Origin: an uncultured bacterium | Lineage (GTDB): Bacteria > Patescibacteriota > Minisyncoccia > UBA6257 > 2-01-FULL-56-20 | Length of the DNA: 64,000 bases | Assembly (NCBI GenBank): GCA_963707865.1 | Contig: OY970175.1 | Location: 556,011-620,010 of the forward strand | Direction: 5' to 3' | In this document: in pieces, positions 27,000-57,209 of the stretch | Layout of the letters: every line of letters begins with the position of its first letter | Position numbering within the stretch: the first letter of the stretch is position 1 | Made by a program: the position numbers and the translations under genes | The notes under the pieces: model-generated | The model's input: the letters and a program-made list of their open reading frames with translations, nothing else | What the model was told of the DNA's origin: nothing | Database searches by the model: none

Positions 27000-27305
27000 A
27001 TGGCTACAAAATTATACGTTGGGGGTTTGCCCTACACCACGACGCAGGATGAGCTTCAGGCTGCGTTCGCGCAGGCCGGCACCGTTTCGTCCACAACCAT
27101 CATTGTGGACAAGATGACAGGCCGCTCGCGCGGGTTCGGTTTCGTCGAAATGGCATCCGACGAGGATGCCCAGAAGGCGATCGAGATGTGGAACGGCAAG
27201 GACTTCGGCGGCCGCAAGTTGACCGTGAACGAAGCCAAGCCCCTTGAGCAGCGCGCTCCCCGGAGCGGCGGCGGCGGCTATGGCGGCGGACGCCAGAGCT
27301 GGTAG
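27000..27305 (+). CDS. RRM-type RNA-binding protein with Gly-rich tail
   Basis: Begins MATKLYVGGLPY (RNP2), has RGFGFVEM (RNP1) and a C-terminal GGGGYGGGRQSW tail. The track start at 26967 is a TTG. Confidence 0.85.
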   Translation: MATKLYVGGLPYTTTQDELQAAFAQAGTVSSTTIIVDKMTGRSRGFGFVEMASDEDAQKAIEMWNGKDFGGRKLTVNEAKPLEQRAPRSGGGGYGGGRQSW

Positions 27306-27358: not shown

Positions 27359-27603
27359 TGTCCTCGTCTTATGCTTTTCGGAGCCCGCTTCGGACTCGAG
27401 AAATCAACTCGCTCATAACGAAAATCCGCCACCCTGGTCGCTGCTCCCGGGTACCCGGTGGATTTTCTATTCGCTCGCGATTTCTACCTCGTCCTCTCGC
27501 TAGGCTCCTCAAAACACAAGACGAGGACAGGCACAAGACTTCGCAACCCGAGTACTTCTGAATAGTTTAGGATGGGACCATCTTACTCATCTCGATCGGG
27601 ATG

Positions 27604-41589: not shown

Positions 41590-43089
41590 TTAGTGGGCAT
41601 GCGAAAAAGTCATGGAAAAGGAAGTAGTGAGGCCGTTCGTTTGCACCTGTCCCAATGGAAGGTTGACGGAACTGAAATCGGAATCGCTCTTGAGCGCCGT
41701 TTCAAACGCAAGGATCGCATCCTGCGTCCGCGCGGTCCCCGAGAGCGCGATAGGAGTGCCCATGGACTGAAACGCAACGTGGTTCACGGTCACTTGATTG
41801 CTCCCTGCGATATCCAAGATTTTTTTCAAAATGACGCCCTTAGGGGCCGCGGCGTTCAGGGCGGCGGCGACGAGCGCCACGGAACCGTTGAAACCGCTGG
41901 CAGTTGCCTGCAGTGCGGTGGTTTCCGCAACCTGCGCGCTGCTCAAATTAAATGAGGAACGTGATTCAATGGTCGTCTTTGTTTCCGAGAGGAATATATC
42001 TGCTCCTGCGAAGGTAACAACGAGAAGCAATAGGGCGGCGGGAATGGCGACGCGCCAAAATCGCATAAAGCCCAGAAGTTCCTCCCCGCGGAACTTGTCT
42101 TGCAACTCCTTTCCCAAGAGGTTGATCTCGCGGTCCTTCACTTTGAACCCCGACTCGCGCAAACTGCATCCGAGCGCGGTAAACCATGCCGACGAAACCG
42201 GCTGGCCCATCGTGAGCATGCAACGTACCGCAGGAACCGAGGCGCTCTCCGTGATGACACGCTCGGTCTCCGCTTCTAAAACCACGGCGGAAAAGATGAT
42301 CGCATCCAAAGATCCGGCCCAGTGCTGGTAATAAAAATTTATGACGCGCCGCACGCTTGCCCCGAGCGTTTCTTCGAATTTTGGAACGGAGATCTCCCCT
42401 TTGTCATTCATAAGATCCTGCCATGGAACCGCGTATTCAAAATATGGCACGCCCTTGCGAATGATCGCGAAATCCAGTCCGGCATCATCAATGTTCACAA
42501 AGAGGTAGGACTTTGCCATGTCAATGCCAGCCCCTTTTTCACGGAGCAGCCGCGCGAGCGCAAACGCCCGTGATTCCACCGCCGTTATGATGAATCCCGC
42601 CTCAAAAAACGCTTCCGCCATCCCATCCACCACGCCGCGTTCAATAAACGCAGAGAGGATCTGAAGCTGCAACGTGTTCTCGTCACGTCCCACAAACTCC
42701 CAGTCCGAATATGCCTCGTCTGCCTCAAGCGGCGAAGTCATCTTGAGGTTCAACTCCACCGCCCTTTCCAAATCCTTTCCCTTAACCGCGGGGAGTGCGA
42801 ATACCTGCGTATAGGTTTCCGCGGAATTGAAACATACCGCCACGCTCATTTTCCCCTTTCTTCCTTTCTTTTGCGCTTGTTCCTTAAGCGCCATGAGCGC
42901 CGCGACAAATCCCTTGCGGTCGGCAATCCTTCCTCCCTTCACTACGCCGGGCTCAAGGCGCACCGCATGCATCTGCCAAGCTTTCCCGTCAAAACGCACG
43001 AGCCGCACCACTTGATCGCTTACGGAAAGTCCCGCGGCCGCCGAATGGACGCGAAGAAGTAAAAGTAATTTTTGGAACCAGCGTTGCAT
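41590..43089 (-). CDS. type IV pilus assembly protein PilM fused to PilN (and possibly PilO)
   Basis: N-terminal actin-like PilM region, then INLLGKE (the PilN INLLP motif), a TM segment and a periplasmic tail. The start is at the internal ATG (MQRWFQ) because the track start lies inside the upstream palindrome. Confidence 0.6.
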   Translation of the reverse strand: MQRWFQKLLLLLRVHSAAAGLSVSDQVVRLVRFDGKAWQMHAVRLEPGVVKGGRIADRKGFVAALMALKEQAQKKGRKGKMSVAVCFNSAETYTQVFALPAVKGKDLERAVELNLKMTSPLEADEAYSDWEFVGRDENTLQLQILSAFIERGVVDGMAEAFFEAGFIITAVESRAFALARLLREKGAGIDMAKSYLFVNIDDAGLDFAIIRKGVPYFEYAVPWQDLMNDKGEISVPKFEETLGASVRRVINFYYQHWAGSLDAIIFSAVVLEAETERVITESASVPAVRCMLTMGQPVSSAWFTALGCSLRESGFKVKDREINLLGKELQDKFRGEELLGFMRFWRVAIPAALLLLVVTFAGADIFLSETKTTIESRSSFNLSSAQVAETTALQATASGFNGSVALVAAALNAAAPKGVILKKILDIAGSNQVTVNHVAFQSMGTPIALSGTARTQDAILAFETALKSDSDFSSVNLPLGQVQTNGLTTSFSMTFSHAH

Positions 43090-43100
43090 AGTTTGGTAGT

Positions 43101-43266
43101 TAGACCCCATCCCCAAAATAGACCACACGACTCTTATGGCCATTTTCGGCTGCGAAACGTGAGTCCCTCCTCGCAATACCACAAGGTATTCCTTCGTCGG
43201 GATTCACGTTTCTCGCTCGAAAATGGTTCATAATCCTCATGTGCCTATTTTTGGGATGGGGTCTAG
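43101..43266. repeat. about 165-bp near-perfect palindromic element, copy A (between pilMN and pilC)
   Basis: Outer arms TAGACCCCATCCCCAAAATAG / CTATTTTTGGGATGGGGTCTAG, inner arms GAAACGTGAGTCCC / GGGATTCACGTTTC. The core of about 85 bp recurs at 44517-44600. Confidence 0.6.
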
Positions 43267-44468
43267 AAAGAACTCGTGAGCTGGTAGATCGGCACAATGA
43301 TGGAAAGCGCGATGGTCACCACGATCAATCCCATACCCAGGAGAAGAATGGGCTCCAAGAGTGACACGAGCGTCTGGATGCTGCTATCAATGTTCGCACC
43401 GTAGAAATCGGCGAGGGTGGCGAGCACCTCGTCCAAGTGACCCGCCTTTTCCGAGATGGCGATCAGATTGCTCAACGTTTTCGGGAAGACCGCCTCGCGC
43501 TTGAACGATTCCCCGATCGTAAGGCCTTTCGCCAAACCTTCATTCGCAACCCGCATGAGCGCATATTGATAATCGCGGTGATTCACGGTTTCCGCCGCGA
43601 CCGTGATGGTTTCAATAATAGGCAATCCCGCCTTGATGAGCGAACTGATTGTAGAGGCCATGCGCTGCACCCCAAGGTCGTTGTAAACTTTCCGAATGAC
43701 AGGAAGATTCGCCAAGATGCGATGAAGGATCCTTTTTCCTGTCTCCGTCTTTTGTGCCCCCACCACGCACACGATGATCGCTGTAATTAAAATCGCGTAG
43801 ATCGGCACGATATTTGCGCCGACGAAAAGCCCGACGCCGAAGACGATGCGCGAGAAAAGCGGCGCACTGATGCCTCCTCCTGAAAATGCCGCGGCGAGTT
43901 TCGGCAACGCAAAGGTGACAAGAAACGTAAGGATAGCGGCTGCCATGCACAAAACAACCACCGGATAGATGAGCGCCGCGCGGATTTTGGATTTTAACTC
44001 CGCATCGCGCTCAAGCGAAACGGAAAGGTCTTCAAAGGTCTTCTCCAAGTTGCCGGAAATCTCTGCGGCTTTGACCAAATTCACGAATGTCGGCGAAAAA
44101 GCCTCCGGATGCCTCGCAAACGATTCGTAGAACGGCTGGCCGCGGCTCAAACTGTCGTACACTTCAAGGAGAAAGTTCTTGATGGAAGGCTTGTCAAAAT
44201 CCGCGATGAGGATGTTCACTGCGGAAAGAAGGTCGGTGCCCACGCGCAGCATAAGCGCAAGGTATTTGGTCAAAAACACCTCGTCGGACGTAGTGATGCC
44301 TCCCCAAAACCTCGGCGCGCCGAACCTGCCACGCTTCAATGCTTTGACCGAGATCGGGCGGAGCTCTTTTCCTGAAAGATAGTGCAGAACGTCGTCAAGC
44401 GTCCCCGCATCAAAATCGGCTTCTTGCGTCTCTCCGGAGCGGTCCACGGCGACATAATGATAGAGCAT
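43263..44468 (-). CDS. pilC: type IV pilus / T2SS platform protein (GspF/PilC family)
   Basis: 401 aa, two GspF repeats, three TM segments. Confidence 0.85.
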   Translation of the reverse strand: MLYHYVAVDRSGETQEADFDAGTLDDVLHYLSGKELRPISVKALKRGRFGAPRFWGGITTSDEVFLTKYLALMLRVGTDLLSAVNILIADFDKPSIKNFLLEVYDSLSRGQPFYESFARHPEAFSPTFVNLVKAAEISGNLEKTFEDLSVSLERDAELKSKIRAALIYPVVVLCMAAAILTFLVTFALPKLAAAFSGGGISAPLFSRIVFGVGLFVGANIVPIYAILITAIIVCVVGAQKTETGKRILHRILANLPVIRKVYNDLGVQRMASTISSLIKAGLPIIETITVAAETVNHRDYQYALMRVANEGLAKGLTIGESFKREAVFPKTLSNLIAISEKAGHLDEVLATLADFYGANIDSSIQTLVSLLEPILLLGMGLIVVTIALSIIVPIYQLTSSF

Positions 44469-44491
44469 GATCTTATTGTACCAGAACCTAC

Positions 44492-44634
44492 ATCAAAAGT
44501 AGGATTCGTCTATTCCGTGTCAGTTTCGAGCGAGAAAGGTGAATCCCGACGAAGCTGTAGCCATGCCTACTGCGAGGAGGAATTCGCCTTTCGTAGCCGA
44601 AACTGGCCGGAAGAGGCGATTGATCTACTTTTGA
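44492..44634. repeat. palindromic element, copy B (between pilC and pilB), inverted relative to copy A
   Basis: The reverse complement of 44517-44600 aligns nearly base-for-base with 43150-43225 (...TTCGTCGGGATTCACnTTTCTCGCTCGAAA). It has its own outer arms, ATCAAAAGTAG / CTACTTTTGAT. Confidence 0.6.
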
Positions 44635-44643
44635 TATAGGTTC

Positions 44644-46359
44644 TCATTCGCGTATCACGCGGAGCACTTCTTCCAATGTCGTGAGCGCAAGCTCGGCTTT
44701 CTGAATGCCGTCTTCAAACATTGTCTTCGCGCCTTCCTTTCTCGCGACGGCGCGCAGGTTCTCAAGATTGAAATTTTCCGCGGTGATGACCCCTTTCACG
44801 GCATCGGTCACGCGGAGTAATTCAAAAATGCCAAGGCGGCCGCGATACCCCGTCATCCCGCAGGAGCTGCATCCTTTCCCACGATAAAGGGTCTTTGGTG
44901 TAAACATGGCATCTTCCGGCACGCCAAGCTCGTGTAATTGGATCCGAACGGTCCGGGCGACATCGGGACCGGCGTCATACGAATAGATACAGGCTGGACA
45001 AACGCGCCGGACGAGGCGCTGGGCAATAATGAGGTTCAGCACCGATCCGGCAAGAAACGGCGGCACTTTTAGATCAAACAGGCGCGGGACTGCGGTGGGA
45101 GCATCGTTCGTGTGGAGCGAGGAAAGAAAAAGGTGGCCGGTCAAGGCCGCTTGGACAGCGATGTCGGCGGTTTCCGCATCGCGGATTTCACCGACCATGA
45201 TGATGTTCGGATCCTGCCGGAGGAGTGCGCGGAGTCCCGATGCGAACGTGACCCCTGCCTGCGTGTTGACCTGCGTCTGGTTCACGTAGCGCATGTTATA
45301 TTCAATTGGGTCCTCAATGGTCACCACATTCACCTGCGGCTTGTTCAGAATGTTCATAAGCGCATAGAGTGTCGTCGTTTTCCCGGAGCCGGTCGGACCA
45401 CAAGAAAGCACCATGCCATAGGCCTTCTTGAGTTCTTCTTTCGCTGCAGCGGCATCTCCTGCCGCCATGCCTATTTCTTCAAGCGAAAGAGGTTTTTGTG
45501 ACGACGTGAGCACCCGCATCTCCGCCTTTTCCCCATAAAATGTGGGCATCACGGAAACGCGCACGTCAGTCAACTCGTTCCCCACCTGCTCCCTGAACCG
45601 CCCGTCTTGCGGCTCGTAGTGTTCATCAATCTTGAGACCCGCCAAAAGCTTGATACGCGCGACGATCGCGGGATGGATGGTCTTCGATACGTTCATCACT
45701 TCGTAGAGAATGCCGTCAATGCGATACCGTATGAACATTGATTCTTCCAATACTTCTATATGGATGTCCGAGGCTCGCGAAGCAATCGCGTAGGAGAGGA
45801 TGTTGTCCACAATAGCGACAATAGGAAGATCTCCCGCTGCTTCTTCGGCACTCTTCGCCCGCGCCGCAAGCGACGCTTTGACATTCTCTCCGATGAGCTT
45901 TTTGAAATCCTGACCGAGCTCGTAGCCGAAAACCGAAAAACCGCGATTGAGATCTTCTTCGGTAGCAAGAAATGGTTTGACTTTCGCTTTCAGGCGCTGT
46001 GCGAGGAATTCTATCGTCTCAAGGTTGGATGGATCCCTCATGGCAACGTCGTATGTCCCGTCGGCTTCCTTGGCGAAGAGGACGACCTGGCGCTGGCGCG
46101 CGATATCTTCCGGAATGAGTTTTAGCACGTCGTTCTCCACTTTCTGCACACTGAAATCAACGCGCGGGACGCCAAGCGCTTTCGCCACAAGGTTGTTCAA
46201 ATAATCCGCGGTGGTGAACTGTTCCGAAATAAGCACGTCAAGGATATTCTGGCTCTTCCTCTCGGCTTCGGCAAAAAGCTCGTCAAATTTTTCCGCCGAG
46301 ATAAGCCCTTCGTCAACAATCAGTTTCTTAAGCTGGAGCGGCGGAAGTGGTAATCGCAT
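44644..46359 (-). CDS. pilB: type IV pilus assembly ATPase (GspE/PilB family)
   Basis: Walker A GPTGSGKTTT, Asp/His boxes, and a C-terminal tetracysteine (CPAC...CSSC). Confidence 0.9.
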   Translation of the reverse strand: MRLPLPPLQLKKLIVDEGLISAEKFDELFAEAERKSQNILDVLISEQFTTADYLNNLVAKALGVPRVDFSVQKVENDVLKLIPEDIARQRQVVLFAKEADGTYDVAMRDPSNLETIEFLAQRLKAKVKPFLATEEDLNRGFSVFGYELGQDFKKLIGENVKASLAARAKSAEEAAGDLPIVAIVDNILSYAIASRASDIHIEVLEESMFIRYRIDGILYEVMNVSKTIHPAIVARIKLLAGLKIDEHYEPQDGRFREQVGNELTDVRVSVMPTFYGEKAEMRVLTSSQKPLSLEEIGMAAGDAAAAKEELKKAYGMVLSCGPTGSGKTTTLYALMNILNKPQVNVVTIEDPIEYNMRYVNQTQVNTQAGVTFASGLRALLRQDPNIIMVGEIRDAETADIAVQAALTGHLFLSSLHTNDAPTAVPRLFDLKVPPFLAGSVLNLIIAQRLVRRVCPACIYSYDAGPDVARTVRIQLHELGVPEDAMFTPKTLYRGKGCSSCGMTGYRGRLGIFELLRVTDAVKGVITAENFNLENLRAVARKEGAKTMFEDGIQKAELALTTLEEVLRVIRE

Positions 46360-46376
46360 AGTTATATAATACCAAA

Positions 46377-46408
46377 CCAGCCGTAGTTTCAGAAGAAACT
46401 ACGGCTGG
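46377..46408. repeat. copy 2 of the CCAGCCGTAGTT hairpin family (between the pilin gene and pilB)
   Basis: CCAGCCGTAGTTTC agaa GAAACTACGGCTGG is a perfect 14-bp stem. Confidence 0.5.
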
Positions 46409-46433
46409 ATGGATTTTGTTCAACCAAAGACCC

Positions 46434-47117
46434 CTACAGGCTGCTTATGGTCGTCCCCGCTTCGTAGACGTACGAATTGAGGCCACCGTCATTGGAAGTC
46501 ACGGCACTGCCGCCCCCCTCCGCGAATTTTGCGCTCTCCATAAAGGCAGCGAGTTTGTAATTCGAGCCACTCATGATGTAGCTGTAGAAAAGAGAACAGT
46601 TCGAAATGGTAACCGAACTGTTCAGCCCGCTACAACCACTGGTGCCTCCGGAGTTTATCGAATCAATTGGTTCCTGCCCGATCGGCGAGCCGGAGCTGAT
46701 GGCCGAGAAGTTTATCGGAAGCCAGCCGGTGAGGGCACCGGAACCAGGCATACTAGTGATGCCCCTTGACGAAGTCGCCACGACACTCGCTGCAGTTACC
46801 ATCCAGTTTGTACATTGCGCAGTGGTAGGAGCGCTCCAAGTCGCGTTGGTGCTGGATATGGTAGCAAAGGTTGTAGTCGCAAGGCTTATGTAGCAAACCG
46901 TTGATGTCCCGATAGCCGTAGATGACACATCCACAAGATAGAGCGAAATAGCGCTTCTCAAGGTTGCCATATCCGAGATGCGGTTAGAATCCCTCGCTTG
47001 GCGCAAAAGCTCCACCGGGTTGAGGGACAGAATGACGACAACCGACAAAATCGCAATGATTGCGATCACGATCAGAAGTTCAATGAGAGTAAAGCCCTTT
47101 TGGTTCTTATGTTTCAT
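46434..47117 (-). CDS. type IV pilin / pseudopilin (prepilin N-terminal methylation motif)
   Basis: MKHKNQKGFTLIELLIVIAIIAIL is a class-III signal peptide. The body is Ser/Thr-rich. The track ORF starts 37 codons earlier, inside rluA. Confidence 0.75.
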   Translation of the reverse strand: MKHKNQKGFTLIELLIVIAIIAILSVVVILSLNPVELLRQARDSNRISDMATLRSAISLYLVDVSSTAIGTSTVCYISLATTTFATISSTNATWSAPTTAQCTNWMVTAASVVATSSRGITSMPGSGALTGWLPINFSAISSGSPIGQEPIDSINSGGTSGCSGLNSSVTISNCSLFYSYIMSGSNYKLAAFMESAKFAEGGGSAVTSNDGGLNSYVYEAGTTISSL

Positions 47118-47224
47118 ACACTTTGTCTGATAAAAGCGACCTTTTAAGGACCAATTCATTATAACAACCTTCGCGGAAGTATGGAAAGGCTGGGTGGGGA
47201 TAACAGCTGTGGATAACTGGCGCG

Positions 47225-48001
47225 TCATTCACGGGCGCCGTTTGACTCTTTCGTGGGCAAGTCGTTCCAAAGACCTCCCGGCGGCTCAGCTTCAAATTTC
47301 ATGCGCGCCCCGCTTGCCGAGGTAAACTCTATGGAAAGCGCGTGCAGCATCAAGCGCTTCGCCCACGACGGCTGCGCCTTCGGGCCGTAGAGGCGGTCTC
47401 CGACCACGGGGAGGCCCACGCTTGCAAGATGAACGCGGATCTGGTGCGTACGTCCCGTCTTTGGATTCACCAAGAGGAGGGAGTACTTCGCTTCCGCGCC
47501 GCCACTTTCATTTTGGCCTCTCTTTAACTCCCCACGTGCGCCCGCAGAAGTTTTTGTAAATGTCATAATGACGCGGTATTCCGTGATGGCGGGCTTTGCC
47601 ATTTTCGCGGAGCTGACACTCCGTTTCGTCGTCCCGTTCCGGATCCCAATCGGCGCGTCAATCGTCCCATGTTTTTGGTGCGGCACACCCGCAACTACTG
47701 CGAGATACGTCTTCAGAACCTCGTGCTCTTGGAAAAGCGATTTGAGATATTCAAAACTTTTTTGGTTTCGGGCGACAAGCATGACGCCAGAAGTTTCTCT
47801 GTCAAGCCGGTGCACGATTCCAGGCCGGAGCGCGGGATTGTCGCCGACCGTTCTCACTTCCGGATAATGCGCGGTAAGCCAATCAACGAGCGTAGGCTCT
47901 GAGGCACCGGATTTTTTTGCGGCGTGCACCTGTAATCCCGCTGGCTTCATGATCGCGAGAAAATTTTTGTCTTCGTAGATAATAGTAGGTTCAAGTATCA
48001 C
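47225..48001 (-). CDS. RluA-family pseudouridine synthase
   Basis: HRLDRETSGVMLVA (catalytic Asp motif). Confidence 0.85.
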   Translation of the reverse strand: MILEPTIIYEDKNFLAIMKPAGLQVHAAKKSGASEPTLVDWLTAHYPEVRTVGDNPALRPGIVHRLDRETSGVMLVARNQKSFEYLKSLFQEHEVLKTYLAVVAGVPHQKHGTIDAPIGIRNGTTKRSVSSAKMAKPAITEYRVIMTFTKTSAGARGELKRGQNESGGAEAKYSLLLVNPKTGRTHQIRVHLASVGLPVVGDRLYGPKAQPSWAKRLMLHALSIEFTSASGARMKFEAEPPGGLWNDLPTKESNGARE

Positions 48002-48132
48002 AGTATGAAAGGGTTATAAAATCTCCGGCCGCCACAGTTCAAATGCAACCCCCATCGCAAATCGTATCAAAAGGTACATTATGAGCGCGCTCGCAGTAAC
48101 CACAATGAACAGCCGGTACTGCTTCCTCATTA

Positions 48133-51100
48133 TTATAGTATATCGCTTTCCGCAACCTTTCTGATGGCCGCCCGCGTCTTCGGACCCAAATATCCCGAAA
48201 CGGGCGTGATTTTTTCTCCCGTCTGATACTCCTTGAGCGCGTTTGTGGTAAAGGCGCCGAAGAAGCCGGTCGGCCCAACCGCGGCGAGCGAGCGCGCCGC
48301 CCGACCGCCGCCGGTTATGAGAAACACCTGGAGCGCCCAGACGTCATTGCCCTTCGCGCCCACGGACAAGGGTCTCCTGGAATTCATGGACGCAAAAAGC
48401 TTGGCGGCGAGGAGTCGCAATCGGGCAAACAATTCAGCGAGCGATGGGACGACGCTTACCGTTGTTGAGGCGCCCAGCACCTGCGGATTGGGCGCACCCG
48501 GAGCAGGGTACGTTGCGCCACTACTACTTCCCTCGCCACCACCGCCACCACTTGCGCCGGTTGTGCCGGTGCCACCTCCACCTCCGCCCGCGCTGTTACT
48601 GCCGCTGCTGTTGTCACCACCGCCACCATTACTACTCACACTGCCACTGTTATCATCACTGCTTGCGCCGTAAGTGGTGCCGCTGGTCCCACCCCCATTA
48701 TTCCCTCCACTATTATCTTCCCCGCTTCCTGTATCTTCCCCATTCTCTGTCCCCCCGCCTCCCGCGCCACCACCGGCATCCGCAGGCGCAACCACCTGAA
48801 AATCAATTTCATAAATCCGCGGGTTTCCCGCCTTGTCAAATGCGGTGATGATCAAAACGTTTTTACCAACATCCTTGAACATCACTATTTCACCATTCGC
48901 GACCGGATTGCCGTTCAACGTTGCCGTCGTAGTCGCAACGCCGGACCCGGCATCCGTCGCGCTGAAATAAAGCGTCGTCGTGCTGTTCTGGAATACCTCC
49001 GCAGGAATAGTCGGCGGGACGATCTCCGGAGGCGTTACATCGGCGATCGCTTCGGCGGCTGAAGTGGTTGCGGTAAGAACCGCAGTCGGCGAGCTTGTCG
49101 CGTCGACATTGCCATCGCCATCATTATCAATCGCGAGCGAAAGATCACCGTCAAAACCGGAGAAGTCCAGTTCCGCCGTTGCGCTCACGTTTTGGAGCGG
49201 CACCGAAACATACGTCGCGGTATCGGTTACCTGATCTGTGGTACGCTTCTTCACCTTTACGGTGGCGAGTGTTGTCGTAGTGGTTGTTTTGGCGGTGCTC
49301 GTAGCGGTGGTACTCGTGTCGGTGGTACTCGTGTCGGTGGTACTCGTGGCAGCCGAGCCAGATGTGGCAGATGTGCCAGTCGTGCTCGAAGCGTTCGCGG
49401 CGGTGCTTATCTTTCGCTTTGTCACTTCCACCTTATAGGTGCTCGTGCTCAAAGAAGCGCCCGTGCCGAGAGAAGTGCTCGTGCTCGCCGGCACCGTGAC
49501 GAACGTGTTGTCGCCGATGACATCGTAGCTGCTCCCCGGAATGCTCACCTCCACGGAACCGTCATATAAAATTCCCGTATGAAGCCCCGTCGGATCCGAA
49601 ATCTCAAGATCAACGGAGCCGTGCGCGCTGAATTCAAACCAAGCCCCCGTGCCGCCGCCGCCCGCCGTGCCGTCCGTACTTGACGCGTGATGCCATCCCG
49701 CAACGCAATCTGCAAGTGCAGCCGAGATGCCCTGCGGCAGATCAGCGTCGGCGATGGCGCCGTCATCAATAAGAGCCACAATGAGCGAAATGGGGCGGGC
49801 ATCAGCGACGAGTCCCCCATGGTCAATCCCCGTCGCGCCACCGTCCACGAAATAATTATGAAAACTGTCCGCAAGGTTCATGGCGCTCACCTCGGGCACG
49901 GTGCCGTCGCCCGTCGTTTGCGCAACATCCACCACACCGCCGTCGTAAAGATCAAATTCGGAAATGGTCGGCATGCGGCAACCCAAAATGTTGTACACGC
50001 TTGGCGCGCTTGCGGTACTTATGCCGTTTGACGCGCTCACCGGCTGCCCGTCAAGTCCCGCATGGAACGCGGCGGCGGCGTCCAAAAGCGCGGCGTTGCG
50101 GCTGTCCGAAGAATTGCTCGCCATCAGGCGGCGTATCGCATCATAGTCCAAAACCGAGCCGTTGTTTCCATTGCGGAAATCGCGCACATATCCCCCGTTC
50201 ACTTGCACGTACCGCGAACTCGGCAGGAGTTCATAGAGCGACGGCATGTTCTCTGCGATTTTCTTGATCTCGGAAGAATTTAAAATATCAAACGGACCGA
50301 GCGCAACGCCAAGATTATCGCCGTAGTTCAAAACCTTGAAGGCCTTCGGCGCTCCGAGTTGCGGCACGCCGACCAGGACCAGCTTATCCAAAAACGAACT
50401 GCCGGGGCGGTCTCTCAAATACCGATTTATCAAGACGCCGCCCATGCTGTGCGCAACAATATTGATTTTCCCGTCCGGCGACGCCGCGACCGCTTGCTGT
50501 ATTCTCGCGTCAAGCGCGCCTGTCTCCGCATCCATGCCCAGCCGCCAATCATACGGCGCCACAAAAAGATCTTTGTTTTCCACGTATCCATCAGAGACAA
50601 AAGCGTTTATGAGATCGCCGTAAAAATCCTTTTGAACCGCGAGGAAAGAAATTGTGGTCGTGACCGTCCTTAGGATGTCGGGCGCACTCATGGCAATCGT
50701 GGAATGGCCCTGCGCGTCCAACGCAAGATCATCAAGGTACGCATCGTGGGAAAGAACGCCCGCGACGCTCGCCATCTTGCCTATGTTCGGCCACACCTCT
50801 TCCCCATCCGAAACGCGCGCGAGGGCCGATCCCGCGATGCCGGGGACGATGACCACCGGCTCACGCGGTCCGCCGCTGTCAAGCTTCATGAACGGAACGC
50901 CCGCCACGTCCGCCGCATAGCAATAATTGTTGACTTGCCACGTACAGGCATAGGTGGCGCCGGGTGCCGCGGCAATGGACACCGGCCTGCCAAAATCACA
51001 GGAGTTGAAACTCAACGCGTAGTAATCAAATGGATTGATCCTTCCTGCGGCGGTGCCCGCGATGACGCCGGCATAATCGCGCGAGGCGATGGGCGCGCCC

Positions 51101-52335
51101 GAGGCATCGGTCCAATTGCCGAACGCGGCGGGTGGACCATCGGCAGCTTGATAATCGCTGTCGGAATATCCCTGGAGGAGGTAGGCAGGCATACCGCACT
51201 CGGACGAGCCTTCCTGGTACATTGTGAGAGAAAGCGTTGTGCTCCCTGTGCCGCCGAGTGGCTGGCCAAGCTTGATCCGCACCGCAAGCGGACCGAAGGA
51301 CGTCCCCGCTTGAGCGTTGTCGGTACCAATGCTTCCTGATTGATCATTCCAATGGTAGAGATAGTAAGCGCTATTCCCAATTCCAAAATCAACGTCTGCC
51401 GGCGGATCGCTCAAGGTACGCCAGGAAGAAACGTTTCCTTCTTCGTCTGCCGCCCTCGCCTGCCAATGATAACCGCCCGGCGCGAGGCCGCTCACAGAAA
51501 CGGCGGCGCGGACGCCCGGCGCGGCAAACGTGCTCGTCGCGGTGGGCACCCCTTCAAAAGGAACGTTGGAAGGTTCAACCTCAACCTGAAGTTGGAGCGG
51601 CTTTGTGCCCGCGGACTGCGGTACGCCAGAGAAAATAATCGTGGTAGTGGCCAAGCTTCTTTCCACAATCGCCGCCACGCCGTCGGATTCGTATTGGCCA
51701 AGTGACGATGCCGCGATATCCGGAATCACCGTCGGATCCGGCACCCAGATGCCGATGGTGATTGTCTGACCATCCATAAGATTGGACGGCTTACCGTCAT
51801 ACCACCACCCCACTACGTCATACGAACTCCCCGCTTGAAGCGCGTAGGTTGTGGTCGCCCATAACAACGTTTGAGAATTCAAGATAGCCCATGCCGAGGT
51901 CGTCGCCGTTCCCCGAAACTGCACAGCACCGCCATCCCCAGGAGGGTCAAGCGCGGCCCTGTTATCGTGAGAAAAGACAAACGAAGTCCCGGTCTCCTGC
52001 CCGTTGTACAGCTCGCTCGTCACGATCGCCGGGTCGTCAATGGAAATCCCGTATGCCTCGGCGATGTCCTTGTCCGGCGTAAAAGTGACAAAAAACTCAT
52101 TGTCCGCGCAGGGGCGGCCCGTCACGGAACAGCTCCGAAAGTTATGGTACAGATGGAATGTTACCTCCTGCGTGAAAACCTCCCGATATCCCGTGGGATC
52201 GTTGAAATAATGCCCGGAATAGCCGCGGCCGTAATCGGTGATAACCGCAGCGTGAGCGAAAAGAGAAGGCGGGAACATTAACCATGCGCTACAGGCCCCG
52301 CCGAGCGCACAGACAAAGAAAATAATCTTTTGCAT
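48133..52335 (-). CDS. large secreted surface protein (1400 aa) with an LCAT/PGAP1-like alpha/beta-hydrolase domain, Thr/Ser and Gly-rich linkers, and a C-terminal peptidoglycan-binding domain
   Basis: Signal peptide, then PYDWRLG plus VAHSMGGVL (lipase GxSxG), a TSTTDTSTTDTSTT linker, a 90-aa Gly/Ser tract, and a PG_binding_1-like C-terminus (LSVGAKGNDVWALQVFL...YLGPKTRAAI). Confidence 0.6.
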   Translation of the reverse strand: MQKIIFFVCALGGACSAWLMFPPSLFAHAAVITDYGRGYSGHYFNDPTGYREVFTQEVTFHLYHNFRSCSVTGRPCADNEFFVTFTPDKDIAEAYGISIDDPAIVTSELYNGQETGTSFVFSHDNRAALDPPGDGGAVQFRGTATTSAWAILNSQTLLWATTTYALQAGSSYDVVGWWYDGKPSNLMDGQTITIGIWVPDPTVIPDIAASSLGQYESDGVAAIVERSLATTTIIFSGVPQSAGTKPLQLQVEVEPSNVPFEGVPTATSTFAAPGVRAAVSVSGLAPGGYHWQARAADEEGNVSSWRTLSDPPADVDFGIGNSAYYLYHWNDQSGSIGTDNAQAGTSFGPLAVRIKLGQPLGGTGSTTLSLTMYQEGSSECGMPAYLLQGYSDSDYQAADGPPAAFGNWTDASGAPIASRDYAGVIAGTAAGRINPFDYYALSFNSCDFGRPVSIAAAPGATYACTWQVNNYCYAADVAGVPFMKLDSGGPREPVVIVPGIAGSALARVSDGEEVWPNIGKMASVAGVLSHDAYLDDLALDAQGHSTIAMSAPDILRTVTTTISFLAVQKDFYGDLINAFVSDGYVENKDLFVAPYDWRLGMDAETGALDARIQQAVAASPDGKINIVAHSMGGVLINRYLRDRPGSSFLDKLVLVGVPQLGAPKAFKVLNYGDNLGVALGPFDILNSSEIKKIAENMPSLYELLPSSRYVQVNGGYVRDFRNGNNGSVLDYDAIRRLMASNSSDSRNAALLDAAAAFHAGLDGQPVSASNGISTASAPSVYNILGCRMPTISEFDLYDGGVVDVAQTTGDGTVPEVSAMNLADSFHNYFVDGGATGIDHGGLVADARPISLIVALIDDGAIADADLPQGISAALADCVAGWHHASSTDGTAGGGGTGAWFEFSAHGSVDLEISDPTGLHTGILYDGSVEVSIPGSSYDVIGDNTFVTVPASTSTSLGTGASLSTSTYKVEVTKRKISTAANASSTTGTSATSGSAATSTTDTSTTDTSTTATSTAKTTTTTTLATVKVKKRTTDQVTDTATYVSVPLQNVSATAELDFSGFDGDLSLAIDNDGDGNVDATSSPTAVLTATTSAAEAIADVTPPEIVPPTIPAEVFQNSTTTLYFSATDAGSGVATTTATLNGNPVANGEIVMFKDVGKNVLIITAFDKAGNPRIYEIDFQVVAPADAGGGAGGGGTENGEDTGSGEDNSGGNNGGGTSGTTYGASSDDNSGSVSSNGGGGDNSSGSNSAGGGGGGTGTTGASGGGGGEGSSSGATYPAPGAPNPQVLGASTTVSVVPSLAELFARLRLLAAKLFASMNSRRPLSVGAKGNDVWALQVFLITGGGRAARSLAAVGPTGFFGAFTTNALKEYQTGEKITPVSGYLGPKTRAAIRKVAESDIL
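49307..49351 (-). repeat. three tandem 15-bp repeats inside the surface-protein CDS
   Basis: gtggtactcgtgtcg x2 plus one imperfect unit. They encode the T/S-rich linker. Confidence 0.6.
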
Positions 52336-52393
52336 GCCCGCAATCGTAGCACGGCGGGCATTAAAATCTTTTTAAAGAACGCTTGACGGGGTA

Positions 52394-54019
52394 TTATCGC
52401 AGATAGTTTTGTAACACCGCCGAGCCGGGAGTGATCGCCATAGCTCGTATCCATTCGTCCGCTGCCGCCGCGCGGTCCTGCGCGGGAATGTCGCCCGCGC
52501 GAACAAAAGGACTGATATAGCGATACGCGAATGCGTCAATCAGAGATTTGTTTTGCGGATCGTCGCGCGCGAGGATGATCGCCGTGTCGTCCCAGTAGAC
52601 GAGTTTGAATCCCAGCTTGCCGGTAAGCCGCGCCGTGAGATTGCCCACGAGGTTCACAAGTGGCGGTTCATACCAAAGGATAAAGTAATTGACCCGATAT
52701 TTTTGGTTGACGAGGGCTTCCCAGCCGGGCGCCGTCGTCATGATCGAAACATAATCGTCCGCGGGGGTTCCCGCATACACATCGTCCCGACTGTCGATGA
52801 AAACCGGCGTTTGCGGCCAGAGCTTCCAGATAAGATAGCCCCCGAAAGACGCATCGTCAAAAACCGGGCCTTGGATATTTTGTTTTTGGATGAACTGCAC
52901 GGCGTTTACGGGAAGCTGATCAGCATTCACTGCGGGAATCGTCCGGGCCCGCGCGATGCCATAAGCCACCACAAGGAAAATAAAAAGTAAAATGGTGAGG
53001 CTGGGAATTATTGATTTCAAAAGGGCCACGCGGGGGAATTTCTTTTCAACACAATAGATGAAGATGGGGAACGTGATAAGCGGGAAAAATCCGACGTGGC
53101 GTATGGAAACGATGGGTAGGACGACCGCGACGAGAAGAAGGAAGAACGCTGGCCAGTCAACCACGCGGTATGGTATCCACCGATCATTTTCCCAGAGAAG
53201 GGTGTAGGTACAAAAGAAGAAAACCAGGAGTGCGAGCACAAGAAAACTCCACGCTTGCCAGGTAATGAGATAGTCGAGAAGCGAGCGCCATTCCTCAACG
53301 CCCAATTGCTGCACGGTCGGGCCAATAATGGAGGAATAGGCGAGCAGGCGCCAGCCATTGGGATTCACGAGCGTTACGGCAAAGGAAAGCGCGCCGATCA
53401 AAGCCAGGCGTATGCGGTCCGCCCACCGCAGTGCGAAAAAGATGAAGCCATGTAAAAGATAAAGTCCGGCGATGCCGATGCCGAGAATGACGCTGGCATG
53501 CATGTTGGCCCATACGAGGAGCACGAGCGGGATCGCAATGAGGAACCGAAAATCTTTGCTGCCGCGCCATGTTTCAAAAATAAAAATGGTGAGGGCGGCA
53601 AAAAAGTAGCTGAAGATCTGCGGCCGCGCTACCCACAGTTCGTAGGTAAGCAAACCGTAGGGAATAAGAATGACGGCGGCAAGCGGCACGTTCCGGCTTT
53701 TCCGGAATGCAGTAAGAAGGACGATGCCGTACGTAAGGAGACTTACGAGCGCGACGAGCGCGATAAGCCCCCCACCGGCTCCGGCGCGGTAAGCAAAATA
53801 AAAAGCGACGTCTGAGAGCCAATAATGATTGATCCATAGCGCGCCTGGCGCAGTATAAGAAAAAATATCGTGCGTGGGAACAAAACCGTGCGTTACGATG
53901 AAGGCACCATTCTCTAGATGGTAGCCGGTGTCGAAGTCGCCGATCGTATTGAGCGAAAGAAGAAAAACGGCCGCGAGCACTGCGGCGACGAGCAGGCCGT
54001 ACCCAAGCTTCCGGTTCAT
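52394..54019 (-). CDS. large polytopic membrane protein, possibly a GT-C-fold glycosyltransferase (YfhO/ArnT-like)
   Basis: About 12 TM segments plus a C-terminal soluble domain. Family assignment is tentative. Confidence 0.35.
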   Translation of the reverse strand: MNRKLGYGLLVAAVLAAVFLLSLNTIGDFDTGYHLENGAFIVTHGFVPTHDIFSYTAPGALWINHYWLSDVAFYFAYRAGAGGGLIALVALVSLLTYGIVLLTAFRKSRNVPLAAVILIPYGLLTYELWVARPQIFSYFFAALTIFIFETWRGSKDFRFLIAIPLVLLVWANMHASVILGIGIAGLYLLHGFIFFALRWADRIRLALIGALSFAVTLVNPNGWRLLAYSSIIGPTVQQLGVEEWRSLLDYLITWQAWSFLVLALLVFFFCTYTLLWENDRWIPYRVVDWPAFFLLLVAVVLPIVSIRHVGFFPLITFPIFIYCVEKKFPRVALLKSIIPSLTILLFIFLVVAYGIARARTIPAVNADQLPVNAVQFIQKQNIQGPVFDDASFGGYLIWKLWPQTPVFIDSRDDVYAGTPADDYVSIMTTAPGWEALVNQKYRVNYFILWYEPPLVNLVGNLTARLTGKLGFKLVYWDDTAIILARDDPQNKSLIDAFAYRYISPFVRAGDIPAQDRAAAADEWIRAMAITPGSAVLQNYLR

Positions 54020-54057
54020 TAGTCTAGTATACCAATCCTAATGATACGAAATGTTGT

Positions 54058-54132
54058 TGGTGCGCGTGGTAGGAATCGAACCTACGACCTCGTCTTTATC
54101 AGAGACGCGTTCTGCCACTGAACTACACGCGC
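54058..54132 (-). tRNA. tRNA-Ile (anticodon GAU), CCA encoded
   Basis: Minus-strand sequence GCGCGTG-TA-GTTCAGTGGCAGAAC-G-CGTCT-CTGATAA-AGACG-AGGTC-GTAGG-TTCGATT-CCTAC-CACGCGC-ACCA. All four stems pair. Confidence 0.85.
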
Positions 54133-54261
54133 AATATCTTCTTTTTTACATCACAACTATTCAAACTGCAAGCGTTGCAGCGAGGGGGCGGGGCACAGAC
54201 ATGGACGAGCTTCGAACTATCTCGAGCCGACTCCTTAATACCCCGGCTGAGATGGAAACTT

Positions 54262-54828
54262 TTACTTATACGTGAGTTCACTGAAAGTAATTACCGTAAT
54301 GCTGTCCAAATCATAGCCATAATGCCGAAAGACCTCTCGCGCATCGCCGTCGAACCTCTTTTCCCAGTCCATATCCAATTTGCCGCAAATTTCTCTCAAA
54401 GACTCCACTGATGGTCCTTCTATTTCTGCATAAGCAGGGATTTTGGGCCAGGTATCAATGTCGATAGTAACGCCGTTAAGTTTAAAGGTGTGTCGATATT
54501 TCTCTAGCTGCCTCATTGGCGTTAATCCAATCTTACTTAAAAGCTCAGAACACTTGCCTAAGTCGGATACCTCTAGCTCGATTTCTTGCGCACTATCCAC
54601 TGCCTGCTCCACATTTTCTTTGTACGTCAGCTTTATCTTGTCTTTTGTTTTTCGGAGCCGTACAAATTTCCTTTTCCCGACCCATGACATATCTGCCGCA
54701 TGGAAAATTATTTCTTCAACCTTTTCTTCGTCTTTATCAATGGCACCCAGCAAGGCGATTTTCTGTGCAAGCTGATCTTTATTTATATCGAGGAACCTTG
54801 TTTCTATTTCCTTCTGCATAGCTTTCAT
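54262..54828 (-). CDS. CYTH-like (triphosphate tunnel metalloenzyme / CyaB-like) domain protein
   Basis: N-terminal EIETRFL resembles the CYTH ExExK motif. Size is 188 aa with a beta-rich pattern. Moderate confidence. Confidence 0.45.
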   Translation of the reverse strand: MKAMQKEIETRFLDINKDQLAQKIALLGAIDKDEEKVEEIIFHAADMSWVGKRKFVRLRKTKDKIKLTYKENVEQAVDSAQEIELEVSDLGKCSELLSKIGLTPMRQLEKYRHTFKLNGVTIDIDTWPKIPAYAEIEGPSVESLREICGKLDMDWEKRFDGDAREVFRHYGYDLDSITVITFSELTYK

Positions 54829-55141
54829 CGTACTAATTTTCAGCGTTTAACACAAAACATTAACGCGCACGGGAGTGGACGATTTTCGAACGATTTTGGC
54901 TTTTAGCCAAAAACAGGCCTGTTTTGTTGATACTTGACAACAAAGTTAATCATATAGTAAACGTGCTGGTGGACTCCGGCTGGGAGCGCAGTAGAAGCTT
55001 CCCGGGGAGGTATACTAGCGTTGCTGTACCTTGTTGCAGTGTTGGTCGGACCGTTGTTAGACGCCAGATCCGAGAGGCCCAATGGTGGAGAGCGAAAGCT
55101 CATCGAAACCGGGCCTTCGGATCTGGCCATTATAATCAAAG

Positions 55142-55172
55142 GCTTCGCACATCGCGAAGCGCTTTGTTTTTT
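55142..55172 (+). terminator. intrinsic terminator inside the long non-coding region
   Basis: GCTTCGC acatc GCGAAGC followed by GCTTTGTTTTTT. Confidence 0.45.
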
Positions 55173-55308
55173 AGGAATACAATCATCAAATTTCAGCGCA
55201 CAAATGAGGATTCGAACATAAGCTATTAAAGAGAGGGACTATCCAAGGGGATCGGACCTTGCGCAGCACCCCGACCCCCGGTCTGGGAAACCCACGGTTT
55301 CCCACCCG

Positions 55309-55339
55309 CCAGCCATAGTTCACTGCGAACTACGGCTGG
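55309..55339. repeat. copy 3 of the CCAGCCGTAGTT hairpin family
   Basis: CCAGCCATAGTTC actgc GAACTACGGCTGG. It is preceded by a second hairpin, GGGAAACC cac GGTTTCCC (55285-55303). Confidence 0.5.
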
Positions 55340-55382
55340 CTCCTTCCTATACGGGGTGCTGCTCCGGTCCGCTCCCAACAAA

Positions 55383-55548
55383 ACAGACAAGCAGGCAGAG
55401 TATATTTTGAGAGGACCGCGCAGCCCCGCTCGGCTCGGTCCGAAATGCCATTGCGCGCATTTCGGCGAGCGGGGCGAGCGCCAAGAAAAAATTGCCGCTG
55501 GAGCAATTTTATTCTGTCTCTCAAAATATACTCTGCCTGCTTGTCTGT
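55383..55548. repeat. MITE-like element: perfect 31-bp terminal inverted repeats flanking 104 bp
   Basis: ACAGACAAGCAGGCAGAGTATATTTTGAGAG occurs at 55383-55413, and its exact reverse complement at 55518-55548. The interior carries nested inverted repeats (CCGAAATGC/GCATTTCGG, CGCAGCCCCGCTCG/CGAGCGGGGCGAGCG). Confidence 0.55.
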
Positions 55549-55721
55549 GCCCCCTCTCGGTCTTGGACCTTTTCGGGAGCAACCTAGCAAGCGTTTCCGA
55601 GGGTCTTCTTCTCCTCTTGTTTGAAGCCTCACGGTCGCTAGGCTCGGGAAATACTATAAGGCATTTTCAGAGATTTTGGTAGGGCTGACGCCTCACGGTC
55701 GCCTCTGCATTGGTGCTTCGT

Positions 55722-55766
55722 AAATGTTACAAATGTTACACTTTTTTGGCACTTTGGCGTGTAACA
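55722..55766 (-). terminator. terminator of the SLATT/SMODS operon
   Basis: On the minus strand, TGTTACAC...GTGTAACA (8-bp stem) is followed by TTTGTAACATTT. Confidence 0.4.
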
Positions 55767-56267
55767 TTATCTGATCTTTCCGGCCTTATCGCGATCCGGC
55801 TCATGCATGCCGCCTTGAACTGTTTTACGTGCTTCGGCAAAGCTTTTATCATCCGTCGGCGGTGTTGATTTCAATAATTCGTTGTAGCGCTGGTGTAAGT
55901 TTTCTATGGCGATAACCAACGCCTCATCAGTCAGCCTTGTCGACTGCGATTCGCGGAGGAAACGGGCGTCGTGCTTTAATGTCGTGAAATTCTTCGCTGC
56001 TGCGAGATGATCTTGGTATGTTTTGTTGGGATTTAGAACGGCTGTGACCGCAGACACCGTGGCGGAGAGGATAGTGAACGGCAAAAGCCATTCGCCAAGC
56101 CAATGGACAGCCACAAGCGTGCTCGATAAAGCAGCGCAGATGGCTGGAACAACTTCAAACCAAGTCGCCTTCCTCTTTGCCCAAACGGCGAGGCGATGAT
56201 GGGCCTCCGCCGTATACGTGCAGTTCTGCTGGATAATTCCACACTCTTCTATATATTTTTCTCTCAT
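55767..56267 (-). CDS. small two-TM protein resembling SLATT-type effectors
   Basis: Amphipathic N-helix (YTAEAHHRLAVWAKRK), then two TM helices (VVPAICAALSSTLVAVHWL, LLPFTILSATVSAVTAVL) and a helical tail. It is the last gene of the nucleotidyltransferase operon. Confidence 0.45.
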   Translation of the reverse strand: MREKYIEECGIIQQNCTYTAEAHHRLAVWAKRKATWFEVVPAICAALSSTLVAVHWLGEWLLPFTILSATVSAVTAVLNPNKTYQDHLAAAKNFTTLKHDARFLRESQSTRLTDEALVIAIENLHQRYNELLKSTPPTDDKSFAEARKTVQGGMHEPDRDKAGKIR

Positions 56268-56284
56268 GGTTTTATTTTATAATT

Positions 56285-57205
56285 TTACAGCGTTGCAGGG
56301 AAATGATCCGGAAACAATTCCCTCCACATTTCAATTTTTGTGCCCTGTTGCGGAGCGGCGTTGATACCGCGGATGTAGTTGGCGATCGTGACAAACGTAC
56401 CGCTGAGTTGCCGCGCTTTATCGGGATCGAACACAATGGGCGTCGACTTACTGCCGGGTATTCCAATCGGAGCCGAGAGCTGAGCGGACGCGTCCGCGAA
56501 AAACTCCCGGAGAAGGTCGTGATAAAACACGGACACGTTGTTCGACCTCTTAACCACCACCGAAAGCGGGATGTTCTTCGTCGCAAGTATCTCCAGTGGG
56601 AAAGAATCCATATCCGCGAAATATCTCTGCTTGAGGGCTTTGAGCATTTTGATCGCAGGAATCAAGTATCCCCCGCTCGCCTCGTTCTGTTTTGAAATAT
56701 ACTCGGCTTCGTAATCGTAATCCGCCATCTGCCACGTACCATTCTTAACAACCCAGTAACCACGACCAATGGAACCGAGCTCTCTTCCGGCGGAATCTCT
56801 CCCGATCATATCAATATACGCCGGAACAAGCTGCGCCTGAATTTCATCGGCGTATGTGACGGTAACGGTGGGCGCATCCTGAAAAGGGTTCATGTCGCCA
56901 TACCGGGCGCTTTCATTAACGGTAGAATGCAGCTGATCCAGTGCCGCTTGCGGGGTCACGCCGCCGGATGCCACCCATGCGGTAAACTCTCCTGCGATCA
57001 CGAGAATATCAATATCAAATTTTTTTCCGCTGCCCGGATGAATTCTTGTCTTGCGGGCAACCGAACCGATGAGCTTCGAATCCTTGAAGGACGGGTGGTG
57101 GTTCTGAAGGTATGTCCGCATGGCGGTATGCCGCGTAGAAACGGATTCCGCGAGCGTAGGATCAAGCTCGAGATTACTTTTCAGTTTTAGAAAATATTCG
57201 TGCAT
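56285..57205 (-). CDS. SMODS / cGAS-DncV-like nucleotidyltransferase (CD-NTase-like)
   Basis: N-terminal helix, then LIGSVARKTRIHPGSGKKFDIDILV (GS-x12-hDhDh) and a downstream YADEIQAQLVPAY (third acidic residue). Confidence 0.55.
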   Translation of the reverse strand: MHEYFLKLKSNLELDPTLAESVSTRHTAMRTYLQNHHPSFKDSKLIGSVARKTRIHPGSGKKFDIDILVIAGEFTAWVASGGVTPQAALDQLHSTVNESARYGDMNPFQDAPTVTVTYADEIQAQLVPAYIDMIGRDSAGRELGSIGRGYWVVKNGTWQMADYDYEAEYISKQNEASGGYLIPAIKMLKALKQRYFADMDSFPLEILATKNIPLSVVVKRSNNVSVFYHDLLREFFADASAQLSAPIGIPGSKSTPIVFDPDKARQLSGTFVTIANYIRGINAAPQQGTKIEMWRELFPDHFPATL

Positions 57206-57209
57206 GAGG

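Follow-up and report, generated by a model that had tools for sequence, protein, structure and literature searches.

Between a CYTH gene (54262-54828) and a SLATT effector gene (55767-56267), both on the minus strand, an uncultured bacterium of the candidate phyla radiation (CPR) carries a gap of ~940 bp that is non-coding and unusually rich in hairpins. The gap belongs to a 64-kb stretch of contig OY970175.1 (positions 556,011 to 620,010), which we call the window and whose own numbering is used throughout; the sequence read comprised these 64 kb of the source genome and 4 kb from a Logan contig. According to our analysis, the gap is best taken, with middling confidence, for a strain-specific patchwork of foldback and palindromic repeats and terminators inside a variable CPR island, and not for a conserved RNA gene. 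This reading is carried by the strong structure of the gap, by the lack of coding signal and of conservation, by the membership of one of its hairpins in a dispersed family and by a size class of foldbacks to which its 166-bp unit belongs. An earlier note on the same DNA had suggested one or more non-coding RNAs (ncRNAs), an integration scar or miniature transposable elements, and of these three options the mobile or repeat-element one has the most support: the variable island, the dispersed hairpin family and look-alike foldbacks, including one clear insertion (X1), speak for it, although the unit singled out in that note, our segment E, fails the tests for further copies and for a target-site duplication.

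The folding signal is strong. Relative to shuffled sequence, plus-strand z-scores are -5.3 for 54960-55175 and -17.5 for 55240-55560, and the entire gap scores -12 to -14.5 on either strand. When 639 windows of 200 nt were ranked after correction for GC content, 4 of the 12 most structured fell in the gap, and two other sites in the 64 kb outranked it. All features listed in the earlier note were found, with coordinates exact or off by 1-2 nt (Table 1): the 16-bp perfect palindrome, which also gives a self-match in BLAST, the canonical terminator, which the terminator scan called, the two hairpins of segment D, the perfect 31-bp terminal inverted repeats with further inverted repeats between them, and the direct repeats GCCTCACGGTCGC and AAATGTTACA, each present twice (the latter at 55722 and 55731).

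The description of the gap as free of open reading frames (ORFs) needs a correction in the letter, since mechanical ORFs of up to 118 aa can be drawn across it. They pass through the hairpins and the terminator, and none has a Pfam match at E<=1 or a tblastn match in phage records; the ORFs without family matches and the terminator lying inside ORFs rule out a protein-coding gap. One ORF of 66 aa (55021-55221, plus strand) begins with TTG, is preceded at 10 nt by a GGAGG box and would encode a hydrophobic N-terminus (MLYLVAVLVGPLL); it too crosses the terminator (55142-55172), and Pfam yields no match for it.

The gap also appears to be confined to this strain. A sister genome (OY970382.1, 887,956 bp; 86-91% nucleotide identity) is collinear with the window over 43007-54133, including a tRNA-Ile gene, beyond which come tRNA-Val, two small genes, DprA and TopA. 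Since it has neither the CYTH gene, nor the gap, nor the right flank, the gap is part of a variable island, at least 13.8 kb long, that starts at tRNA-Ile. Around the CYTH gene the GC content is 42-46%, against 53-59% in the collinear core. The break in synteny, between 54133 and 54134 of the window and within 9700-9880 of the sister locus L049, falls exactly on the 5' side of tRNA-Ile, and tRNA-Val is found in the sister genome only. The island continues at least to the window-equivalent position 67962, and no tRNA is reached there. The tRNA gene that had been described as adjacent to the gap is this tRNA-Ile (54058-54132); it stands beyond the CYTH gene, ~700 nt away.

Conservation of the gap in relatives is limited to its two edges (54829-54885 and 55722-55768). 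The interior of 835 bp, ~54885-55720, has no homologue in relatives or by blastn in plasmid and phage collections. Scans of genome, virus and metagenome collections used exact patterns, which diverged homologues of segments B, D and E would escape; in IMG/VR they found nothing for the terminal inverted repeat and the core of E, the hairpins of D including the CCAGCC(A/G)TAGTT hairpin, or the hairpin of B.

The dispersed hairpin and the foldbacks of about 165 nt

Segment D, which is part of the stretch with a z-score of -17.5, embeds a copy of a hairpin that is spread over many CPR genomes. Within the window the stem CCAGCCGTAGTT/AACTACGGCTGG forms three hairpins (26834-26899, 46377-46408 and 55308-55340), and the stem 10-mer occurs 11 times where 2.4 occurrences are expected. 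When GTDB genomes were scanned for CCAGCCGTAGTT-N(3-33)-AACTACGGCTGG, 27 loci (L022-L048) in 21 genomes came up, against ~0.1 loci that we estimate for chance. Named CPR lineages account for 23 of the 27 loci, two further ones are in metagenome-assembled genomes (MAGs), among them the sister genome, and the remaining two belong to Pollutimonas and Nocardia. The CPR lineages represent very distant classes: Saccharimonadales, Yanofsky-, Kaiser-, Lipton-, Moran- and Gracilibacteria and Parcubacteria. Most copies are intergenic (28 of 34 across the 27 loci), and a genome may hold up to 8 of them, in both orientations and in ORF-poor, hairpin-dense clusters. In Parcubacteria GW2011_GWA2_49_9 eight copies lie within a repeat unit of ~50 nt, in both orientations (as seen in L040), and the copy in segment D has flanks that match the repeat unit of L036, L040, L025 and L026 with 76% identity over 50 nt. 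Being short, repeated, mostly extragenic and present in either orientation, the hairpin at 55308-55340 resembles repetitive extragenic palindromes and bacterial interspersed mosaic elements (REP/BIME). We found no paper describing it, and its sequence matched unrelated primers only.

Two loci of GW2011_GWA2_49_9 (L040 5200-6500 and L025 5100-6900) contain ORF-poor tracts of ~1 kb made of a few repeated hairpin modules in both orientations, similar in style to the gap between CYTH and SLATT. In L040 a DUF559 endonuclease-like ORF (5702-6118) is placed between 101-nt inverted repeats; a link of the hairpin family to this endonuclease was ruled out, the gene being found beside copies in L040 only.

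The same hairpin is met in genuine RNAs. It constitutes helix P3 of an RNase P RNA scoring above the Rfam threshold in L046 and the P16/17 region of an RNase P RNA in L031, a role which shows that it can work as an RNA helix. In L022, L027 and L044 it abuts a CR-I-like motif, GAGGAAAG(C/U)(U/C)CGG, and these loci probably encode RNase P RNAs that miss the Rfam gathering score; the adjoining motif in such sub-threshold loci suggests that RNase P RNA of CPR bacteria is detected too rarely by the standard model. Elsewhere the hairpin is found 234 nt upstream of tmRNA (L029) and ~440 nt upstream of 23S rRNA (L030).

Segment E has the traits of a miniature inverted-repeat transposable element (MITE): terminal inverted repeats that match over 31 of 31 nt, a length of 166 bp and no ORF with a Pfam match. 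None of 100 shuffles produced a match, and the predicted fold reaches -107 to -108 kcal/mol on either strand. The stems of both D and E are paired in near-pure Watson-Crick fashion, with 0-1 G-U pairs, which suits palindromes acting at the DNA level. Independent support for the repeat in the reads comes from a Logan contig assembled with k=31 (ERR10755942_941254; L007/L014), which ends at window position 55519, 30 of 31 nt into the right arm; an end at this point is to be expected if the inverted repeat is genuine, because one of at least 31 nt breaks a k=31 graph. Foldbacks of this kind would thus fragment short-read assemblies.

E is not the only foldback of its size in the window. A window-wide scan brought up four more, X1, X2, Y1 and Y2, of 162-171 nt; exact 12-mer inverted seeds are present in four of the five, against a mean of 0.28 and a maximum of 2 in dinucleotide shuffles. 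X1 and X2 are paralogous rods of ~163 nt, and Y1 and Y2 are paralogues of ~169 nt, 65-80% identical. X1 is absent from the sister genome, whose empty site would fit a duplication of TA or TAG, so that it clearly looks like an insertion relative to that genome. Family X has no match in Rfam. By nhmmer E shows no sequence relationship to X or Y, and its termini differ, which rules it out as their kin in sequence. A sixth, weaker foldback at 20313-20474 (162 nt) has 19-nt arms that are 79% complementary and possibly overlaps coding sequence, and Y1 follows directly after the terminator of a gene for an RRM-type glycine-rich RNA-binding protein (26967-27305).

The favoured reading and its rivals

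We propose that the gap is a mosaic at a junction within the island, that its two edges alone belong to the neighbours, the left one being the 5' region of the CYTH gene and the right one a 3' hairpin of an operon resembling the cyclic oligonucleotide-based antiphage signalling system (CBASS), and that the 835-bp interior would be a nest of independent hairpin and foldback modules of a sort that colonises non-essential spacers. Segment D would be a 128-nt foldback embedding a copy of the dispersed CPR palindromic hairpin, segment E a single-copy foldback built like the other ~165-nt MITE- or Correia-like foldbacks of the window, and segment B a structured piece of ~200 nt ending in a bidirectional intrinsic terminator. 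Such modules may be selfish or repeat elements of DNA whose arms are kept complementary. When transcribed, they would fold into very stable hairpins, and these may stop or insulate convergent transcription, that of the CBASS operon on the minus strand against that from the CYTH-side promoter region on the plus strand; they may also serve as barriers to RNase III or exonucleases. Both this terminator or insulator role and the mobility of E itself are things we infer, the latter from architecture.

Several observations weigh against a patchwork of mobile repeats. The flanks of E (caacaaa|ACAGAC...GTCTGT|gccccct) contain no direct repeat and hence no target-site duplication. Within the window only the two arms of E match each other; a 20-mer of the arm has no match in one genome per GTDB species and none in IMG/VR, and its 7 matches in JGI metagenomes have unrelated flanks and no extension, as chance matches would. 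With no further copy in these four collections, its mobility is argued from architecture alone, and in the source genome the copy search covered 64 of 899 kb (7%). The copy count by which the earlier note would have recognised E as a MITE therefore came out negative, and E is not shown to be one; the label MITE-like fits its arms, its size, its lack of coding content and the look-alike foldbacks, but not its single copy and its missing target-site duplication. No cognate transposase was identified for the foldbacks. Besides, X2, which lies between pilC-like and pilB genes, is 96% identical to its sister copy where the flanks are ~86% identical, and in both families the rod pairing has been kept through double changes, in 13 of 65 pairs between the X paralogues and in 15 of 54 between the Y paralogues. 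Because of these compensatory changes and the stronger conservation of X2 than of its flanks, the families look like objects of selection on structure, which would weaken a reading of them as junk. Taken with the empty site of X1, the same changes and the identity of X2 mean that this genome carries mobile, structurally maintained foldbacks of ~165 nt, which E resembles in architecture only. Also, since the dispersed hairpin serves as the P3 or P16/17 helix of genuine CPR RNase P RNAs, it may be a module at the RNA level, and segment D may be a part of a real RNA. Finally, one strand of segment B gives a far better fold than the other, and the segment has a good terminator.

These last points lead to the strongest alternative, which we regard as possible and clearly less probable than the patchwork: that the gap encodes one or more new functional ncRNAs, either a plus-strand RNA of ~205 nt (B), or a minus-strand RNA of ~500 nt (F-E-D in our lettering of segments), or both. 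The minus-strand RNA would be a 3' extension of the CBASS operon or start just downstream of it, and the bidirectional terminator would be the common end of both RNAs. Apart from the extreme folding z-scores, the asymmetry of segment B argues for it, with a minimum free energy (MFE) of -96.3 kcal/mol on the plus and -78.3 kcal/mol on the minus strand, a difference of 18 kcal/mol, and with 7 against 3 G-U pairs, next to a terminator hairpin that is called on the minus strand too, with a weaker tail there. The sole mismatch in the stem of the CCAGCC(A/G)TAGTT hairpin becomes a G-U pair on the minus strand only, and the use of the same hairpin in RNase P RNA (L046 and L031) points in the same direction. 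Nevertheless, Rfam matched no family: over the whole window the tRNA-Ile gene was the sole match, and even at E<=10 the gap gave two chance miRNA matches only, with nothing for RNase P, tmRNA, 6S, SRP, riboswitches, group I and II introns, GOLLD, ROOL or Y RNA. The RNAs have no homologue in plasmid or phage collections or in the IMG/VR pattern scan, they are missing from the downstream side of five related CBASS operons and from the region ahead of related CYTH genes, and an evolved RNA would not usually have stems so nearly all Watson-Crick as those of D and E.

Promoters are a further difficulty for such RNAs. The TTGACA box noted earlier is present, but TATAGT follows at only 13 nt and a usable -10 hexamer is lacking at the 16-18 nt spacing; the sigma-70 scan passed over the site, and over the gap it found no acceptable promoter on either strand. 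As a stand-alone small RNA gene, B has its terminator, whereas its promoter is not called and the relatives are without it. Its GAAA-capped hairpin, previously given as 60 nt with 16-nt arms, has 65 nt, 11 perfect pairs and ~20 pairs in the MFE fold.

Known non-coding systems were considered and rejected as well. The gap is not an RNase P RNA, the CR-I and CR-V motifs being absent, and ARAGORN rules out a tmRNA or a tRNA. Tandem repeat-spacer units next to a Tas gene define a TIGR array (PMC12045711); the gap has one 17-nt repeat pair and no tandem unit, which excludes a TIGR or CRISPR array, and its neighbour proteins include no Nop-domain (Tas) or Cas protein.

A more particular form of the RNA idea, which we hold to be improbable, is that D and E (with F) make up a ~500-nt minus-strand RNA of the CBASS island, built from CPR-specific RNA modules including the CCAGCCGUAGUU hairpin. 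If this were true, the CCAGCCGUAGUU hairpin would be a shared docking site for a CPR RNA-binding factor, and the ~165-nt rods (E, X and Y) would be a new class of structured RNA and not transposon relics.

Equally improbable in our judgement is an attL-like scar, left by integration of a phage-derived CBASS island in a tRNA gene, with the hairpins and direct repeats as remnants of binding sites for a recombinase or accessory proteins. The island does lie beside a tRNA cluster, with tRNA-Val present in the sister genome and absent from the window; a T-loop decamer and a T-arm-like hairpin are found on the same strand as the sister tRNA-Val; and there are the 17-nt direct repeats and the end of similarity to a related island at ~55722. 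These two weak tRNA-like motifs (55204-55261) are all that the search for an att scar yielded, and they are rejected by ARAGORN and by the Rfam tRNA model at E<=10; the hairpin has a loop of 8 nt and a stem that differs in sequence. Up to window position 67962 there is no matching direct repeat and no intact tRNA, no integrase or recombinase was recognised among the island genes examined, and GC-rich perfect hairpins are atypical of att arms.

That E is an invertible switch, in which a recombinase supplied in trans would flip the 104 bp between the 31-bp repeats, seems very unlikely: recombination would maintain perfect identical repeats, and an internal hairpin with a U-tract would point the opposite way after inversion, but no recombinase was recognised within ~10 kb, the 104-bp segment has no promoter, and the four like-sized foldbacks of the window have imperfect arms and continuous rod pairing. 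Least credible of all is an assembly artefact, in spite of an arm length that equals a common k-mer size and the break of the k=31 Logan contig there, given that a real repeat of at least 31 nt would break in the same way, that the reads hold the arm beside the SLATT flank, that the 104-nt interior is unique and structured and not a duplicated flank, and that like foldbacks recur in the window, one of them conserved in an independent genome.

Edges of the gap and neighbouring genes

On the left, the CYTH homologues are proteins of 185 aa from Paceibacterota and Nomurabacteria MAGs, which places the genome (source contig of 898,885 bp) in the CPR or Patescibacteria, as a Paceibacteria-like member; because of this length the true start codon of the CYTH gene is probably at 54819. 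In four contigs with a CYTH gene 86% identical to ours (L001-L004) similarity to the window ends at ~54861-54885, and a nitroreductase gene lies ~100 nt upstream of CYTH; contigs with an 88% identical CYTH gene have a tRNA-Tyr gene upstream instead. Only ~54829-54885 of the left-hand part of the gap is thus common to relatives. The pair of palindromes that follows (54898-54925) is a possible operator between divergent transcription units.

On the right, the gap ends with a hairpin just past the SLATT stop codon, which may terminate the CBASS operon or regulate it. The closest SLATT relative (L013, 89% identical) keeps it with one compensatory change (T>G / A>C), and its similarity ends at ~55722; it is the only SLATT relative similar beyond the stop codon, those at 85%, 81% and 77% identity having other sequence or genes downstream, and no SLATT relatives were found in IMG/VR. 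The two 17-nt direct repeats nearer the middle have no further exact copy in the window.

The CBASS-like operon itself (55767-59285) comprises two SMODS cyclases, one with AGS_C, and the SLATT_4 effector with two transmembrane segments (2TM). On the minus strand the right flank carries a CI/LexA-like S24 repressor, a 67-aa gene, the SMODS+AGS_C cyclase, the second SMODS cyclase and the SLATT effector, and divergent from these are a 269-aa gene, two DNA methylases, TerS and TerL; this flank is phage-derived. The operon stands directly downstream of the repressor, and the block has TerS and TerL but no structural genes. Its relatives (L008, L009 and L013) have one cyclase each and lie in different islands.

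Table 1. Features of the gap and foldbacks of the window, in window coordinates
Feature	Position	Strand	Basis or remark
5' untranslated or promoter-proximal region of CYTH gene (putative)	54829-54885	-	similarity to CYTH relatives
Second palindrome TTGGCTTTTAGCCAA, abutting AAAACAGGCCTGTTTT	54898-54912		seen in sequence
16-bp palindrome AAAACAGGCCTGTTTT	54910-54925		seen in sequence; self-match in BLAST
TTGACA box and TATAGT	54934-54958 (TTGACA 54934-54939)	+	weak promoter candidate
Segment B, candidate small RNA, ~205 nt, five hairpins	54965-55172	+	predicted fold
65-nt hairpin, GAAA loop	55063-55127	+	11 perfect pairs; ~20 pairs in MFE fold
Intrinsic terminator GCTTCGC-ACATC-GCGAAGC, then GCTTTGTTTTTT	55142-55172	+	terminator scan
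T-loop decamer GTTCGAATCC	55208-55217 (motif region 55204-55261)	-	weakly tRNA-like; only exact copy in window
Hairpin CAAGG-TCCGATCC-CCTTG	55244-55261	-	weakly tRNA-like; GGTCCGATCC common with sister tRNA-Val
Segment D, 128-nt multi-branch foldback, outer stems around three hairpins	55248-55375		folds; inverted repeats I3, I4, I7
GGGAAACC/GGTTTCCC hairpin, inside segment D	55284-55304		found in sequence
Hairpin repeat copy, stem CCAGCCGTAGTT / AACTACGGCTGG (CCAGCC(A/G)TAGTT hairpin)	55302-55352 (hairpin 55308-55340)	-	family matches, flank similarity
Segment E, 166-bp foldback, two internal hairpins, three-way junction	55383-55548 (arms 55383-55413, 55518-55548)		inverted-repeat search, fold; window-wide scan, 166 nt
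Two 17-nt direct repeats TGA(A/C)GCCTCACGGTCGC, 64 nt apart	55622-55702 (starts 55622, 55686)	+	repeat search D1
Hairpin AATGTTACAC-(17 nt)-GTGTAACATT, then TGTAACATTT	55722-55768	-	just past SLATT stop codon
Y1 foldback	27359-27529		window-wide scan, 171 nt
Y2 foldback	38535-38701		window-wide scan, 167 nt
X1 foldback	43101-43265		window-wide scan, 165 nt
X2 foldback	44483-44644		window-wide scan, 162 nt

Known repeat systems and meaning for CPR genomes

Among known systems, segment E comes closest to the Correia elements of Neisseria (CREE) and to bacterial MITEs, which are likewise intergenic, rod-like and of ~100-170 bp, with terminal inverted repeats of 20-30 bp and no ORF; X1 appears to have been inserted with a TA(G) duplication much as Correia elements and IS630-derived MITEs are. 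Elements of this type can act as terminators, promoters or RNase III sites. Unlike them, E is single-copy in the collections searched, has no target-site duplication and no identified transposase, and its termini are unlike those of the other foldbacks. The CCAGCCGTAGTT hairpin can be compared with the REP, BIME and REPIN sequences of proteobacteria, which are also short, mostly extragenic, present in both orientations and clustered in ORF-poor tracts. REPs are species-specific, however, whereas the stem of the CPR hairpin is common to very distant classes and is found inside RNase P RNA helices as well. In being tolerated in genes of structured RNAs and in spacers it is similar to the Rickettsia palindromic elements (RPE), but those have 100-150 bp and often lie in frame in protein genes, and the CPR hairpin has 30-50 nt and makes up a whole RNase P helix, not a loop. 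With GOLLD and ROOL the gap has in common a size of several hundred nucleotides, a multi-hairpin, non-coding make-up and a place in prophage-like DNA near tRNA genes; in contrast to them it has no covariance-model match at E<=10, no homologues and no covariation, and its stems are near-perfectly Watson-Crick.

CPR genomes are tiny and gene-dense, and our literature searches turned up no account of extragenic palindromes or MITE-like foldbacks in these bacteria. Here palindromes and foldbacks are frequent, structurally maintained and, in at least one case, mobile. The gap itself, as a strain-specific nest of repeats, would be of worth mainly in excluding a new RNA gene, and the dispersed elements matter more. 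The 12-bp stem common to distant CPR classes may be either a horizontally spreading palindrome that is tolerated by RNAs, or a phylum-wide module of RNA-protein recognition. Either outcome would inform the annotation of CPR genomes and would account for the poor scores that standard models give to their RNase P RNAs.

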